The notes under the pieces are model-generated. The model did not search any database and was not told where the DNA came from. It saw only the letters and a list, made by a program, of their open reading frames with translations. This document shows positions 1 through 7,967 of a DNA stretch of 64,000 nucleotides, piece by piece. Source of the DNA: Shigella phage JK55; sequence record MK962758; one strand, 5' to 3'. The translations under genes were made by a program, and so were the position numbers. Every line of letters begins with the position of its first letter. Position 1 is the first letter of the stretch.

Positions 1-1101
1 ATGCGCATGGTAAACGACCACGCAGAAGTGATTAAGAGTTCAACTTCTTTGGAGACATCTCAAGCACAGATTACAATGACACCTGAAATGTTCAGCCTTT
101 TGAGTTCAGGTGTATACACATTCAAAGAAAGGGCAGTGATTCGTGAACTGTCATGTAACGCAGTAGATGCTCAAAAAGAAGCTGGAAAAGAGAACATCCC
201 ATTCCATGTGCATTTACCTACTCGATTTGAGCCTTACTTTGAAGTCCGTGACTTTGGAACTGGTTTAACCCATGACAAAGTAATGAGTTTGTATCTGAAC
301 TATGGGGCTTCTACGAAGAATGACTCCAATGATTACATTGGTGCAATGGGTATCGGCTCAAAATCCCCATTTGCAATTGCTCAGTCATTCACAGTATCTA
401 GCTATGTTGATGGTGTTGTTAATAAGTACTCTGTTTACCTTGAGAATGGTATCCCTCAAGTAACTAAGCTTACTACCAACCCAACAAATGAACCCAATGG
501 TTTAGCTGTACGTGTGGCAGTTGCTGACCATCGTATTTCAAAGTTCTTTGAAGAGGCTGGTCACGTATACTCATACTTTGCTGTGAAACCAGAAAGTAAT
601 ATTGTATATGATGACGTGTTAGCAGATATGAACGTCATTGCCCGTGAAGAGGGTGTTTATGATGCCATGATTCATAAGCAAAGCTGGCGTTCTAGTGGTA
701 ACAGGACAGAGTTTAATGTGGTGATGGGTAACATTGCCTACCCTGTTAACATGGAAGCATTACTTGGTGATGATTTCTTCAAAATCTTGCCAGAATTTTT
801 CCGTAGGAGCGTAGACCTTGTAAACATCTACATGCCTATTGGTTCAGTTGCTATTGCAGCTTCTCGTGAAGCATTACAGATGAATGACACGACAAAAAAT
901 GTTATCATTGAGGCTACTAAAAAGATAACTGAAGCCATTACAAAGGATGTTATCAAGAAAGTTAATAGCCAACCTACACTCATGGATGCCGCACAGGCTT
1001 ATGCTGAGTTACGTTTGAACTCACGAGAGATGTTTAATGCTGTGTGTCCAAAGCTAGAGTGGGTGGCGTTAAGCTTGATTCTCTGGAAGAAGAATTGCTA
1101 A
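1..1101 (+). CDS. rIIA: rIIA-like protein, N-terminal part (GHKL-type ATPase fold)
   Basis: GHKL motifs visible in translation: N-box RELSCNAVDA, G1 box DFGTG, G2-like GAMGIGSKS; PxGSxxIAxSREAL segment typical of rIIA family; followed by rIIB-like gene. Ends at stop 1099-1101 while an overlapping frame continues (see 1044..2366). Confidence 0.6.
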   Translation: MRMVNDHAEVIKSSTSLETSQAQITMTPEMFSLLSSGVYTFKERAVIRELSCNAVDAQKEAGKENIPFHVHLPTRFEPYFEVRDFGTGLTHDKVMSLYLNYGASTKNDSNDYIGAMGIGSKSPFAIAQSFTVSSYVDGVVNKYSVYLENGIPQVTKLTTNPTNEPNGLAVRVAVADHRISKFFEEAGHVYSYFAVKPESNIVYDDVLADMNVIAREEGVYDAMIHKQSWRSSGNRTEFNVVMGNIAYPVNMEALLGDDFFKILPEFFRRSVDLVNIYMPIGSVAIAASREALQMNDTTKNVIIEATKKITEAITKDVIKKVNSQPTLMDAAQAYAELRLNSREMFNAVCPKLEWVALSLILWKKNC

Positions 1102-2366
1102 ACATTCGTCGTGGAATTATCTACGCAGAAGACGGCTCAGTTATTTATGAACGTGACGGCAAAGGTAATATTAAGGTTGATAGGAACGGGAACAATATCC
1201 CTAAAGTAGATTATCTTTATGACCCAGTTGCTTATGTCAAGTTCAACTCTTTAGAGAGTAAGATTCGTGCAACATCGCTTTCCTACACTCAAGAGGCAAG
1301 TATGTTCAATATCTTTGGTGCAATGCGTAAAAGCCAAATTGAACAGTTTTTGTTTGTTATAAATGACCGTCGCAATAAAAATGGTACTGAGAAGACTGTA
1401 GGACGCAATCAGATTCTGCGTGGTGCATGTCGAGACTATGCCAGCGAGTCAAGCCTGTTTCACAGATATAATGGTATTGTCTTTGTATTCTCTACAGAGA
1501 AAGAGCTAGATGACTTAATCAATCTGCACAAACTTGATAAGAGCTTGTTAAAGATTGTGAAGATGTCTGATAAGGAACACCATTATCAGCGTAAAGAAGC
1601 TGTGAGAGGTGTTGTAAAACTCTGGAAAGCTGTTCCAGCAGAAGGTGTAGCCTCATACACAGAGGTGTCAGAAGACTTAGACACGATTGAAGAGCCTCAG
1701 CTTTATATTAAGGCAGTAGGTGACACAGTTGATGGCGAATGTTTTTGCTCATCTCCAGATGATGTAGCTAAGTCAGTTGCCAATGTCATTGGAAAGACAG
1801 TCTATGTTTTCCGAAAAGCAAATTGGAAAAAGATACCAGAAGACTGGATTGAAGTAGATGAGAAGCTCTTGAACGACAGCTTAACTGATGTTCATTGGAT
1901 TAATCATAACAGGTATATGACACGCGTCTGTATGCGTGGTGTCCTAGACCTTACAAGCTGTTGGATTATTACCAGAAACTTTACGTTCAATAACAGGAAG
2001 ATTTCTGATGGTTATTGCTATTCACGGGATACAAACAAAACTATCTTCCTAGAAGGTAATGAAGATGCTGTTGAGGCAATGTTCGGTAAAATCCAATACA
2101 TTGCTGCACAATTTGCATACACTTACACTATTAGTGTGTTGCAAGATTTGAAAAGGTGTCTTGATAATGATACAAAACTTTACAAGAAAATTAAGAAAGC
2201 TGGTGACCGTATGTTTATTAAGGTAACAAACTACTTCTCAAAAAGAAAACAAGAAAACTTCTTGCTTTCTCATCTAGATTGGAATAAAGTGTCACCCGTC
2301 GAAGTAAGTAAGTTCTTAGGCTTTGATGTGAAGTGTGTTCCAGAAGGAACTACAATTTACGATTAA
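1044..2366 (+). CDS. rIIA: rIIA-like protein, C-terminal part (continues in -1 frame relative to 1..1101; frameshifted or split gene)
   Basis: ORF opens (GTG at 1044) inside the 3' end of the previous ORF; combined length about 790 aa fits rIIA-size proteins; frame change coincides with a (TG)3 tract at 1041-1047. Confidence 0.45.
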   Translation: MSKARVGGVKLDSLEEELLNIRRGIIYAEDGSVIYERDGKGNIKVDRNGNNIPKVDYLYDPVAYVKFNSLESKIRATSLSYTQEASMFNIFGAMRKSQIEQFLFVINDRRNKNGTEKTVGRNQILRGACRDYASESSLFHRYNGIVFVFSTEKELDDLINLHKLDKSLLKIVKMSDKEHHYQRKEAVRGVVKLWKAVPAEGVASYTEVSEDLDTIEEPQLYIKAVGDTVDGECFCSSPDDVAKSVANVIGKTVYVFRKANWKKIPEDWIEVDEKLLNDSLTDVHWINHNRYMTRVCMRGVLDLTSCWIITRNFTFNNRKISDGYCYSRDTNKTIFLEGNEDAVEAMFGKIQYIAAQFAYTYTISVLQDLKRCLDNDTKLYKKIKKAGDRMFIKVTNYFSKRKQENFLLSHLDWNKVSPVEVSKFLGFDVKCVPEGTTIYD

Positions 2367-3572: not shown

Positions 3573-3597
3573 GGCTGCTTCGGCGGCCTTTTTTATT
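3573..3597 (+). terminator. rho-independent terminator (GGCTGC-TTCG-GCGGCC + T-run)
   Basis: GC stem with UUCG tetraloop followed by TTTTTTATTT. Confidence 0.7.
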
Positions 3598-3655
3598 TGT
3601 ATTTTGTGCAGAGTGCTGTATAATTGTTGTCACGATAAACTAAACAGGAGAACCA

Positions 3656-4204
3656 ATGAAGAAATTGATTCTAGGTTTGTGCTTAATGTTTACAGCACAC
3701 TTATCTTATGCAGTTGACTGCCCAGAGCTATCAATTAGCCAAAAAGTAAACATGTTAAAAGCTTACCAGTATGGTGAGAATAACATGGGCAAAGGTTGGG
3801 GTATCACTCTAGCTGCTATAGCCTTACAAGAGTCAGAGTTAGGTCTGAAGGTAGAGAATAAAAAGACACATGATTATGGTATTTTCCAGAATCACTTGAA
3901 GACTGTTGTAAAGCGTAACAAAATTAGTCCTAATGTGGCTAAAAAGAAACTCTTAAAAGACTTTGACTATGCTGCGAAGGAAACGCACAAAGAGCTTGAG
4001 TTTTGGACAAAGGTGCATGGTCAGCCAAAGTCAAAGAAGACTTTACAAAAAGTTTTAGCATCATATAATGCTGGGTATTCGTACAGAATCCCTAAAGCTA
4101 AGAAATACTCTCAAGATGTCTATAACAATATGAAAGTTATCGCTCAATGTGAATTTGCAACAAACATTTCTAAGGTAAATCATGAAAAAATTAAGAAAGT
4201 CTGA
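3656..4204 (+). CDS. secreted lytic transglycosylase-like protein (SLT-domain motifs)
   Basis: N-terminal signal peptide (MKKLILGLCLMFTAHLSYA); motifs LQESELGL, YGIFQ and SYNAG match the E-S / G-x-x-Q / AYNxG pattern of family-1 lytic transglycosylases. Confidence 0.45.
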   Translation: MKKLILGLCLMFTAHLSYAVDCPELSISQKVNMLKAYQYGENNMGKGWGITLAAIALQESELGLKVENKKTHDYGIFQNHLKTVVKRNKISPNVAKKKLLKDFDYAAKETHKELEFWTKVHGQPKSKKTLQKVLASYNAGYSYRIPKAKKYSQDVYNNMKVIAQCEFATNISKVNHEKIKKV

Positions 4205-4877
4205 TGAAGTCCTGTGTCATGCTTATGACTTGCATCCTCATGAGTTTGGTCTTGATTCCTGTGTATGGACTCCAGAACAGTGCAGGGATTTTGAAGACAC
4301 TGCAAGAGAAGTTGTATGTTCACTTGAAGATTTCCACACATCAGAGCCAATTGTGAATGTTGTAGATAAAGAGACTGGACAAACTATAGGTGTAAGTCGT
4401 GATAGCTTAGTCATAGTCAATAAAGACCTTGTAGAAAAAGGTAACCTCATCTTAGCAGATATTGATGGTGTTCTTACAAATTTTAATCACGAAGATTGCT
4501 CAACGGAATTGACTGATGGGTCATTCTCACAGTACACTAATCTTCTTGACTCTGTAAGAGCAAAACCAACGTATGTCTTTAGTATTATTGATGCAATTGC
4601 TAATCATGCTGCCATTGGACTCTTGACAGCGAGAGGTGAATCTCAGAGAATACCTACTGAGATGTTTTTAAGGCATAACACAGAGCATGACTACATGCTT
4701 TTTATGCGTGGTTTTGGGACTAACTCTATAAGTGCAGAAAGTTTGAAAGTGAGGATGATTCAGTCTTGCATTCTGCCTTACTTTAATATAGTATGTTTTA
4801 TAGAAGATACAGAGAAGAATGTGCAGAAGGTGAACAGAATCCTTCCACACATCAAAACCATGTTAGTTAAACATTGA
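4182..4877 (+). CDS. HAD-superfamily phosphatase-like protein
   Basis: Motif ILADIDGVLTNF matches HAD motif I (DxDGx); otherwise unassigned. Confidence 0.35.
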   Translation: MKKLRKSDEVLCHAYDLHPHEFGLDSCVWTPEQCRDFEDTAREVVCSLEDFHTSEPIVNVVDKETGQTIGVSRDSLVIVNKDLVEKGNLILADIDGVLTNFNHEDCSTELTDGSFSQYTNLLDSVRAKPTYVFSIIDAIANHAAIGLLTARGESQRIPTEMFLRHNTEHDYMLFMRGFGTNSISAESLKVRMIQSCILPYFNIVCFIEDTEKNVQKVNRILPHIKTMLVKH

Positions 4878-5404: not shown

Positions 5405-5752
5405 ATGACATTTAAAGAGTTCTGTCAAGCTACTTTCATAATTGTTTTCTTAGTTGGGGCAGGTGTCTGGGGAGGATACTCTTACAGAGACTATCAAGTT
5501 GCTGAAGCTGAGCTAAATAATGAGAAACTAATAAGTGTTGCCAAAGATGCTTATCAGGAAGGTTTAGCCACACTGAGCACCAATTACAAAAATGATTTGA
5601 AAGATGTGCTTGCTAAGAATAAGCACACAAAAGAGGTACTAACATATGAAAAAACTAAGCCAGAGTTTTATAATGTTTGTGTTACTGATAATTATGTCAG
5701 GGTGTTCAACGAACAAAGTGAACAGTACATTCAAAAACTCCCAAGTAAGTGA
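5405..5752 (+). CDS. i-spanin candidate (Rz-like, N-terminal TM anchor)
   Basis: Single N-terminal TM helix (FIIVFLVGAGVWGG) then charged helical periplasmic domain; 3' end overlaps a lipoprotein ORF in another frame (classic Rz/Rz1 overlap). Confidence 0.45.
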   Translation: MTFKEFCQATFIIVFLVGAGVWGGYSYRDYQVAEAELNNEKLISVAKDAYQEGLATLSTNYKNDLKDVLAKNKHTKEVLTYEKTKPEFYNVCVTDNYVRVFNEQSEQYIQKLPSK

Positions 5753-5915
5753 GAGTGATAAGTACACTCAAGAAGATTCAAGATTCACTATCAAAGGTAA
5801 TACTGGTAGTGATGTGGCAGCAGCCCTTGAGTTCTATCGTGATGGATTTTACCAGTGCACAATCAAAGCTAATAACCTTATTGATATGATTTTATTAGGA
5901 AATAAACAGCAATGA
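5646..5915 (+). CDS. o-spanin candidate (Rz1-like outer-membrane lipoprotein)
   Basis: Signal peptide with lipobox IIMSGC; starts inside 3' end of the preceding TM-protein gene in a different frame. Confidence 0.45.
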   Translation: MKKLSQSFIMFVLLIIMSGCSTNKVNSTFKNSQVSESDKYTQEDSRFTIKGNTGSDVAAALEFYRDGFYQCTIKANNLIDMILLGNKQQ

Positions 5916-6510: not shown

Positions 6511-6712
6511 AAAGACACGAAAACTTATCAGGTCAGCAGTGTTCATTGGACGAAATGAGGTCATCCCATTTACAGCAAATGATGTGATAGCTTACAGGAA
6601 GAACTTAGTATTCACTGACTGCTTACGTGGCTTCATCTCTGAACCATTGGAAAACTTTAAAAGTCGTTGTGGTAAAGGCATCATCATTCAAGAGGCAATT
6701 ATTCATGGCTGA
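6485..6712 (+). CDS. hypothetical protein
   Basis: ORF overlapping neighbours by a few codons. Confidence 0.4.
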   Translation: MKVILARDKKTRKLIRSAVFIGRNEVIPFTANDVIAYRKNLVFTDCLRGFISEPLENFKSRCGKGIIIQEAIIHG

Positions 6713-6905
6713 CTTCTGCAAAGACTGTTCTATCGAAATGTTCGGACGTGATACAGGTGACTTAAAAGGTCTTATCACTGAAGATGACTTTAAAGCTGGC
6801 TATGCAATGCCAGTAATCTGTGAAGGTTGTGGGTGCATCTGGGTAGACCACGAAGGACAGCGTGTAAAACCTTCAGAAGATAAAGAATCTTGGGAGAGAT
6901 GTTAA
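6705..6905 (+). CDS. hypothetical small Cys-rich protein (CxxC...CxGCGC)
   Basis: Internal ATG at 6705 with AAGAGG RBS about 10 nt upstream; contains CKDC and CEGCGC motifs (possible Zn binding). The ORF track start at 6627 overlaps the upstream gene extensively. Confidence 0.4.
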   Translation: MADFCKDCSIEMFGRDTGDLKGLITEDDFKAGYAMPVICEGCGCIWVDHEGQRVKPSEDKESWERC

Positions 6906-7691
6906 ATGGGTATTGTAAAAATCATCAATGGCGATATCTTTGCCGCATTTGATAAAGGTAAGTTTGACATCATTGGTCACGGTTGCAACTGTATGAATTT
7001 AATGGGTGCAGGTATCGCTGACAAGATTTCTAAACTTTACCCAAAAGCATATGAGACCGATACAGAAGTTTATCTATATGCAGGTGGTATAGGTCACAAA
7101 CCCTGTGAGAATTTACTAGGTAATTTCTCTGTAGCACGCTTAAAACAAGGTCGTATAGCTAACCTTTACACTCAGCTTAAGACTGGTAAAGATGCACGAT
7201 ACAGTGTTTTAGAGTCATCTTTGAAACAGCTTAACAGATACTGTGAAGTTAATCAGTTGAAGAAAGTTGGTTTACCTATGATTGGTGCAGGTATCGGTGG
7301 GCTGGACCCTCAAGCTGTCACAGTTATCATCAATCAGGTGATGAAGAGTGTAGATGTTTATCTGTATGTCTATGAAGGCGAGATGTACCACAAGTTACGC
7401 TCAGGTTGGAAGAACTACTGTGAACCAGAATACTTTGCAGGTGTAGCAGTGTTCACGGATAACGCAGTTACCCTCTTCAGACGAAGAAAAGGTAAGATAC
7501 ATCAAAGTAACCCTCCGGTTGAAAAGATGTCTCTAGGTAATGCTCTAGTTACCCACCTGTCGAAGAGCAATCACAGAATGGCTGTGACATTTGGTAGTGA
7601 TGCAGAAGCTTATATCTATGCAAGAACTGATGAGGATATCGAGGCAATCTTCTCTTCACCAGAAGTTACCTTCTTAGACGCAAAGAACTAA
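6906..7691 (+). CDS. macro-domain protein, TARG1/OARD1/DarG-like (ADP-ribose processing)
   Basis: N-terminal 160 aa show GDIF...HGCNCxNLMGAGIA...LPMIGAGIGGL...VYLYVY, matching the TARG1-type macro-domain pattern (GDLF, MGAGIA, MPRIGCGLDRL); about 100 aa of C-terminal extension unassigned. Confidence 0.55.
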   Translation: MGIVKIINGDIFAAFDKGKFDIIGHGCNCMNLMGAGIADKISKLYPKAYETDTEVYLYAGGIGHKPCENLLGNFSVARLKQGRIANLYTQLKTGKDARYSVLESSLKQLNRYCEVNQLKKVGLPMIGAGIGGLDPQAVTVIINQVMKSVDVYLYVYEGEMYHKLRSGWKNYCEPEYFAGVAVFTDNAVTLFRRRKGKIHQSNPPVEKMSLGNALVTHLSKSNHRMAVTFGSDAEAYIYARTDEDIEAIFSSPEVTFLDAKN

Positions 7692-7760
7692 GAAACTCTG
7701 TAGAATATTCACAATAGACTAAGCCTTTCTTATCTGGTAAATTTTTCAGGTAAGGAGGGC

Positions 7761-7943
7761 TTTTTCATTTCAGGATTGTGCAGGTATATTTCTATAGAGA
7801 AATCTGTAGAGAAAATTTTGAACTCCAAAGAGAAAATTCATTTTCAAACTGTGCAGGTAATCTCCAAAGGGCTTTTTCATTTTCAAAACGTGCAGACCCC
7901 GCTCAGGTCGGGCAAGAAAAATCATTTTAGAATTGTGCAGGTA
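7761..7943 (+). repeat. four direct copies of about 22-bp motif TTCATTT(T)CAnnA..GTGCAGGTA in intergenic region
   Basis: Copies near 7765-7786, 7838-7860, 7876-7896, 7922-7943; a fifth partial copy follows the terminator at 5380-5394. Confidence 0.6.
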
Positions 7944-7967
7944 GGTTTTTATAGAGAGCCAGACCAA

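Follow-up and report, generated by a model that had tools for sequence, protein, structure and literature searches.

A Tk.4/AdfM-type macrodomain with glutamine at the catalytic lysine position and an orphan C-terminal domain: a candidate antidote to DarT2 in Shigella phage JK55

Macrodomains are common in phages and were found in 41% of myoviruses in a survey (PMC9503650). One of these proteins, Tk.4 of phage T4, has been connected to the DarTG2 defence system. The tk.4 gene was the single significant hit when a T4 transposon library was exposed to DarTG2, and a clean tk.4 knockout sensitised T4 to DarTG2; the gene was renamed adfM, for anti-DarT factor Macrodomain (Humolli et al., bioRxiv 10.1101/2025.11.20.689424, November 2025). 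The name AdfM has also been given to the chimallivirus macro proteins PhiKZ gp104 and PhiPA3 gp108, with which removal of thymidine-linked ADP-ribose was observed in vitro (2026, PMC13309987). In removing ADP-ribose linked to thymidine in DNA, SCO6735 of Streptomyces coelicolor (PDB 5E3B) is faster than DarG and TARG1; it also protects E. coli against DarT, which it can inhibit by interaction as well (PMC9411070). This enzyme carries Gln85 at the position of the catalytic lysine; its activity is abolished by the Q85A and Q85E mutations and nearly so by N27S (PMC9411070). The subject of this study is a gene at positions 6906-7691 (+ strand) in a 64,000-nucleotide stretch of Shigella phage JK55 (MK962758), the whole of which is referred to as the window. 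The gene is a complete coding sequence (ATG at 6906, stop codon at 7689-7691) and its translation, a two-domain macro protein of 261 residues, is identical to Shigella phage JK55 QEG06675.1. Alignments place its macrodomain with Tk.4 and suggest an active site of the SCO6735 type.

The N-terminal macrodomain (residues 1-157; positions 6906-7376, +) was assigned to the Tk.4/AdfM type within the ALC1-like class by Pfam, BLASTP, Foldseek and profile comparisons. Pfam Macro (PF01661) matched residues 25-141 over profile positions 2-117 of 118 with E 1.1e-7, its 32.2 bits exceeding the cut-off of 22, and PHROG 335 ('phosphatase') matched with E 2e-111, so that the match goes far past what chance would give. 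The macro signature on which an earlier, sequence-only reading of this gene was based is present in full, with GDIF at residues 9-12, HGCNC at 25-29, MGAGIA at 33-38 and LPMIGAGIGGL at 123-133; the motifs HGCNC, MGAGIA, NLYTQ and PxIGAGIGG are invariant. An AlphaFold model of the 261-residue protein, built with 30 relatives as input, had a predicted local distance difference test score (pLDDT) of 91.4 and a predicted template modelling score (pTM) of 0.90, and displays the three-layer alpha/beta/alpha macro fold in its N-terminal part. Foldseek returned 245 PDB matches at E<=1e-3; the best of these were TARG1 (target TM-score 0.84-0.87), DarG (0.79-0.84) and Poa1p (0.75-0.77), and among the 50 matches listed 49 were macrodomains or grouped conserved hypothetical proteins, the exception being a designed serine hydrolase. 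A profile of the family compared with the PDB gave a similar picture, with TARG1 (1.9e-16), M. tuberculosis DarG (4.5e-16), Poa1p (1.8e-14), SCO6735 (1e-14), and BT1257 and T. aquaticus DarG (1e-13). In PADLOC, DarG was the sole family matched (E 2.7e-13, macro part only), with a score better than that of Tk.4 itself. These sequence and model comparisons assign the macrodomain to the TARG1/DarG/Poa1p (ALC1-like) class, and the family profile, the predicted fold and the PADLOC DarG model all bear out the TARG1/DarG-like macro type that had been proposed from the letters of the gene.

Residues 3-157 of the protein align with residues 2-152 of the 155 residues of T4 Tk.4 (34% identity, E 1e-23, BLASTP). 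Both proteins have the motifs HGCNC, G.G[IV]A, NLYTQ and P.IGAGIG, including a Gln at the position of the catalytic lysine, and both are encoded by orphan phage genes without an adjacent toxin gene. They differ in that Tk.4 is a single domain of 155 residues, whereas the window protein has an extra 104-residue domain at its C-terminus. The neighbourhoods are different as well, vs/tk in T4 and the rII block in the window phage, and anti-DarTG2 activity has been shown genetically in T4 alone. When the window was searched with T4 Tk.4 by tblastn only this gene was matched, and no second macro gene was found.

The active site was compared in a MAFFT alignment of the DarG macrodomains of M. tuberculosis and T. 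aquaticus, TARG1, T4 Tk.4, PhiPA3 gp108 and the window protein. Asn28 (codon 6987-6989, +) corresponds to N22 of DarG in this alignment. Gln90, in the motif NLYTQ (codon 7173-7175, +), stands where TARG1 (K84) and DarG (K80) have their catalytic lysine; the hidden Markov model (HMM) alignment and the MAFFT alignment agree on this. The position of D125 of TARG1 is taken by G131, and DarG likewise has a Gly there. Both Asn28 and Gln90 are conserved in all 76 unique phage relatives, as are N86, G26, C29, G36, A38, P124 and G129, while G127 is nearly invariant (74 of the 76). Thus, the ADP-ribose-binding elements, i.e. N28 and both glycine-rich loops, are intact, and the second of these loops, GAGIGGLD, resembles GVGNGGLD of DarG. 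Conservation of the catalytic residues, which had been proposed as a check of the earlier reading, holds for these binding elements and fails for the TARG1/DarG lysine, replaced by Q90, and for D125 of TARG1, replaced by G131. To judge from the alignments, an invariant Gln replaces the DarG/TARG1 catalytic Lys in the whole Tk.4-type phage family, T4 AdfM included, which is reported here for the first time. In the macro ortholog of an Erwinia-type phage (locus L033, see below) the His of HGCNC is replaced by Gln.

The loss of the lysine does not refute a function for these proteins, because SCO6735, with a Gln at this position, hydrolyses thymidine-linked ADP-ribose on DNA. Q90 was equated with Gln85 of SCO6735 by transitivity, via TARG1 K84 and DarG K80 (PMC9411070), and not by direct alignment; Asn28 was equated with N27 by motif spacing only, the Asn being found three residues after the His in both proteins (H24..N27 and H25..N28), as the SCO6735 sequence itself was not in the alignment. 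With these assignments, the Gln-type active site would tie the Tk.4-type family mechanistically to SCO6735 and not to DarG. SCO6735 differs from the window protein in being bacterial, chromosomal and single-domain. Furthermore, SCO6735 and BT1257 have a mobile loop that is five residues longer and carries extra lysines (Lys89, Lys93/94), whereas that of the window protein has the short DarG/TARG1 length: it aligns with the DarG/TARG1 loop without gaps, while the long loop of BT1257 needs extra residues when compared with Tk.4.

DarG (PDB 5M31/5M3E/5M3I) and the chimallivirus AdfM proteins are of the same macro class and share the job proposed here, the removal of DarT2's ADP-ribose from DNA. 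DarG also resembles the window protein in the Asn (N22, N28) and the GGLD loop. However, DarG and the chimallivirus proteins are of the Lys type (FPTKKHW, against NLYTQ in the window protein) and share 21-24% identity with it; the chimallivirus AdfM motif is FPTKERW at 21% identity. With the PADLOC DarG model, PhiPA3 gp108 scored 130 bits and the window protein 48 bits; with the NCBIfam DarG equivalog, the window protein reached 48.1 bits where 250 are required. A tblastn search with T. aquaticus DarG matched 290 phage records, and no Felixounavirus was present among the 40 matches listed. It follows from these comparisons that two distinct macro lineages share the name AdfM, and that the window protein belongs to the Gln-type Tk.4 lineage, a placement that is new here. 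TARG1/OARD1 (PDB 4J5S) is the best profile and Foldseek match and has both the MGAGIA loop and the His of HGC, but its K84/D125 dyad is Q90/G131 in the window protein, and it lacks the conserved Asn, having Ser/Glu where the window protein has CNC. The C-terminal DarT-binding domain of DarG is unmatched in the window protein. The flanking open reading frames (ORFs) had no Pfam matches and revealed no darT partner, the window as a whole not having been scanned with a DarT profile, and no ADP-ribosyltransferase is annotated in the stretches of phages HY02 and Bas63 that were examined. The protein was not accepted as a member of the DarG family, for which it lacks the catalytic Lys, the C-terminal domain and a partner gene in the operon; its place in the wider TARG1/DarG-like class is unaffected.

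Residues 158-261 (positions 7377-7688, +) extend past the macro fold in the AlphaFold model, in agreement with the C-terminal extension of about 100 residues noticed earlier, and form a domain of a helix, six beta-strands and a short helix. The pLDDT of this part was 82-94 in the full-length model and 76.8 when the domain was modelled alone. The domain was seen solely fused to this macrodomain, in Ounavirinae-like phages; elsewhere, most relatives consist of one domain and have 146-195 residues. It had no match in Pfam, and none in the PDB by sequence profile or by fold. Foldseek against BFVD returned only its own family, phmmer against 1.84 billion representatives two matches, both from the same family, and a C-terminal profile against a database of 5.8 billion proteins a single fragment. 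A stand-alone copy beside single-domain macro genes was not found among the six-frame ORFs of 85 loci, which included T4 vs and tk.1-3. Three short members (P0071, 156 residues; P0043, 166; P0008, 179) were encountered in public assemblies in clusters otherwise made up of proteins of 259-261 residues; these would be without most of the C-terminal domain, by natural truncation or as assembly fragments.

The two domains evolve at different rates. Among 19 unique Felixounavirus alleles the ratio of nonsynonymous to synonymous substitution rates (dN/dS) was 0.07 in the macrodomain, compared with 0.19 in the C-terminal domain. The latter is truly coding, and both are under purifying selection. Identity of the C-terminal domain was 52% in one relative and 23% in another, against 81% and 53% for the macrodomain. 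Conservation in the C-terminal domain is limited to a Pro, a Gly and a Tyr, with no conserved polar residues, and its net charge varies; this suggests a module for binding or scaffolding and not an enzyme. The macro ortholog of an Erwinia-type member of the Ounavirinae (L033, positions 3998-4780; IMG/VR contig 651703043) has 260 residues, the last ~105 of which are without detectable similarity to the window protein. The two extensions were unrelated in hhalign (probability 0.1), suggesting that the accessory domain was either replaced between genera or diverged past recognition. A fast-evolving orphan C-terminal domain that is specific to Ounavirinae is new here.

The evidence leans, if not strongly, towards an orphan antitoxin-like ADP-ribosyl-DNA glycohydrolase of the Tk.4/AdfM type, which would reverse the modification of thymidines by DarT2 with Gln90 and Asn28 and carry an accessory C-terminal module. 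Asn28 and the glycine-rich loops MGAGIA and GAGIGG would bind the ADP-ribose moiety. The macrodomain would then most likely strip the ADP-ribose that a host toxin of the DarT2 type puts on thymidines of single-stranded phage DNA, and phage replication would be restored by this removal. Catalysis is unlikely to follow the lysine mechanism used by TARG1 and DarG. A glutamine-dependent, water-mediated mechanism such as that proposed for SCO6735 is more likely, in which Gln90, held by Asn28, would position the distal ribose. The 104-residue C-terminal domain, evolving several times faster, would be an accessory non-catalytic module packed on the macrodomain, with targeting, partner binding and toxin binding as candidate roles. 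From the 34%-identical homologue Tk.4 we infer a counter-defence role for the gene; its position in the rIIA/rIIB block of small accessory genes was also counted in favour of this. No NADAR (anti-DarT1-type) protein was listed for the Felixounavirus Bas63 when the BASEL phages were surveyed by DELTA-BLAST (PMC11825919). The idea of the sequence-only reading, reversal of host ADP-ribosylation by a phage protein, was right in kind but is not new, as the anti-DarT2 role of a homologue had already been reported.

Several observations weigh against DarT2 reversal. The protein has neither the catalytic lysine of DarG and TARG1 nor the longer mobile loop with lysines through which SCO6735 engages DNA. 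For T4 the evidence comes from genetics and has appeared only as a preprint, no enzymology has been reported for Gln-type phage enzymes, and at only 34% identity to Tk.4 the substrate specificity may differ. A literature search on Felixounavirus with DarTG or macrodomains retrieved no experiment. The HxCNC motif and several annotations indicate small-molecule phosphatases like Poa1p equally well.

The target of the enzyme could be different. It is possible, though unlikely, that the ADP-ribose is taken from proteins or RNA on which some other ADP-ribosyltransferase of the host has acted, or that ADP-ribose-derived immune signals, e.g. those of Thoeris, are the substrate; this would still amount to counter-defence, though against a different system. 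The class is promiscuous, as SCO6735 and TARG1 also de-modify proteins (PMC9411070), and a survey of viral NAD and ADP-ribose (ADPr) systems argues that soluble ADPr derivatives may be the substrates of many phage macrodomains (PMC9503650). The presence of the Tk.4-like family in ~2,780 phage records is also far wider than a single target might predict. Nevertheless, the only functional datum for the Tk.4 subfamily concerns DarTG2, and the mRNA ADP-ribosyltransferase CmdTAC strongly restricts wild-type T4 although Tk.4 is present (PMC11618068). At least this RNA modification is thus left uncountered by the T4 homologue, and a link with CmdTAC was rejected on this ground. A housekeeping role is distinctly improbable in our view. 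Here the protein would resemble yeast Poa1p and, as an ADP-ribose-1''-phosphate phosphatase or O-acetyl-ADP-ribose deacetylase, dispose of by-products from RNA repair or NAD metabolism. Poa1p is indeed among the best fold and profile matches and has the HxCNC...G.GIA motif, its H23 corresponding to the His of the window protein, and relatives have been named 'Poa1p_like', 'phosphatase' and 'O-acetyl-ADP-ribose deacetylase'. Yet Poa1p has a Ser (LFTSS) where the phage family has its invariant Gln (NLYTQ), and a different second loop, INSGIFG; the phenotype of the T4 homologue is defence-specific, and the label 'phosphatase' is an inherited annotation and not a test. A gene annotated as polynucleotide kinase (Pnk) lies 2 kb upstream of the macro gene in Bas63, and a distant syntenic metagenomic relative showed a weak HAD_PNKP match, but the Pnk-like ORF of the window had no Pfam match at E 0.1, and this neighbour was rejected as a sign of an RNA-repair role for lack of Pfam support in the window. 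RNA repair by T4-type Pnk and ligase is not known to generate ADP-ribose 1'',2''-cyclic phosphate (Appr>p), which also counts against a metabolite enzyme.

The two-domain architecture permits further explanations, in which the C-terminal domain has a larger part. It is quite doubtful, if somewhat less so than the housekeeping role, that the protein is a two-pronged antitoxin analogue, in which the Gln-type hydrolase would be combined with a lineage-specific domain of novel fold that binds the toxin (DarT2 or another ADP-ribosyltransferase) or tethers the protein to the replisome or single-stranded DNA. In such an analogue, phage genera would exchange or remodel the C-terminal domain as their hosts changed, and this would account for its three- to fivefold faster evolution and the unrecognisable Erwinia counterpart. 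A protein acting mainly without catalysis, as a sink for ADP-ribosylated DNA or ADP-ribose or as a direct inhibitor of the toxin, with the C-terminal domain as a toxin-binding module as in DarG, is very improbable. The missing canonical lysine would fit such a role, and catalytic mutants of SCO6735, DarG and TARG1 still inhibit DarT by interaction (PMC9411070). DarG, like the window protein, has a second domain, which interacts with DarT, and the C-terminal domain of the phage protein evolves fast and is replaced in Erwinia relatives. Against this stand the strict invariance of N28 and Q90, the equivalents of which are catalytic in SCO6735, and the finding that the single-domain T4 Tk.4 is genetically sufficient. 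Moreover, the C-terminal domain is unlike the C-terminal half of DarG (PADLOC, NCBIfam) or any PDB fold.

If the macrodomain does act as a DarT2-reversing glycohydrolase, DarTG2, a defence of enteric pathogens, would meet a built-in antidote in Felix-O1-like phages. These phages are widely used in typing, biocontrol and therapy of Salmonella and E. coli, and such an antidote would therefore bear on host-range prediction. Beyond the published work on AdfM, the present analysis adds the invariant Gln of the whole Tk.4-type family and the C-terminal domain of the Ounavirinae; both additions are incremental and leave the picture of the field unchanged. The T4 protein, consisting of the macrodomain only, provides a natural comparison for what the C-terminal domain contributes. 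The macro gene is conserved in more than 250 phage records. Megablast and tblastn searches place the window in Felixounavirus (Ounavirinae). A 3-kb probe centred on the gene's surroundings was covered to 80% or more by 148 phage records, and the macro protein of phage HY02 was 99.6% identical. A tblastn search with the macro protein of the window matched 2,782 phage records. Database names for the relatives are 'phosphatase', 'macro domain-containing protein', 'O-acetyl-ADP-ribose deacetylase' and 'Poa1p_like ... ADP-ribose binding module'; the macrodomain itself is thus already annotated in public records and holds no novelty.

The macro gene is preceded by a Shine-Dalgarno-like GGGAGAG (6892-6898, +), 7 nucleotides 5' of its ATG, and is followed, 30 nucleotides past the stop codon, by a hairpin resembling an intrinsic terminator (7721-7762, +) with a stem of 17 pairs and a T run. 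It is the final gene of a + strand block with the order rIIA, rIIB, SLT-like protein, polynucleotide kinase (Bas63 annotation), two spanins, four small ORFs and macro; the small neighbouring ORFs had no Pfam matches. The order rIIA/rIIB, HAD_PNKP-like gene, small ORFs and macro is repeated in a metagenomic relative with a macro protein that is just 35% identical. The TAA of the preceding ORF (6903-6905) directly adjoins the ATG of the macro gene, and these abutting codons at 6903-6906 suggest translational coupling of the two. The upstream ORF (6705-6905, +) encodes 66 residues with four cysteines (CxxC ... CxxCxC) and is zinc-ribbon-like. In a distant syntenic relative (L004, 7810-8001) an ORF of 63 residues with CxxC ... 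CxxC adjoins the macro gene, its sequence similarity to the 66-residue ORF being slight. The four-cysteine ORF may be a coupled partner of the macro gene, or its presence may be a coincidence.

Directly 3' of the terminator of the macro gene, positions 7762-7957 of the window contain four direct copies of a motif of ~22 nucleotides, TCATTTTnnAAnnGTGCAGGTA, spaced ~35-75 nucleotides apart. A similar copy is located at 3590-3611, between rIIB and the next gene, and small minus-strand ORFs are annotated across the 7762-7957 repeat stretch in some related records. The repeats could be phage promoters or regulatory sites. At the beginning of the window (1-2366), two ORFs, 1-1101 and 1044-2366, take the place of the single rIIA gene that is intact in HY02. 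Relative to HY02, 1 nucleotide is deleted in a G run near 1061, which reflects either a true frameshift in rIIA or a sequencing error in the homopolymer. Two ORFs on the + strand, 5405-5752 and 5646-5915, overlap in different frames and correspond to the i-spanin and o-spanin of the Bas63 annotation. These spanin ORFs share the + strand block with the rII genes and the macro gene, while the endolysin gene is far off, at ~20 kb in HY02.

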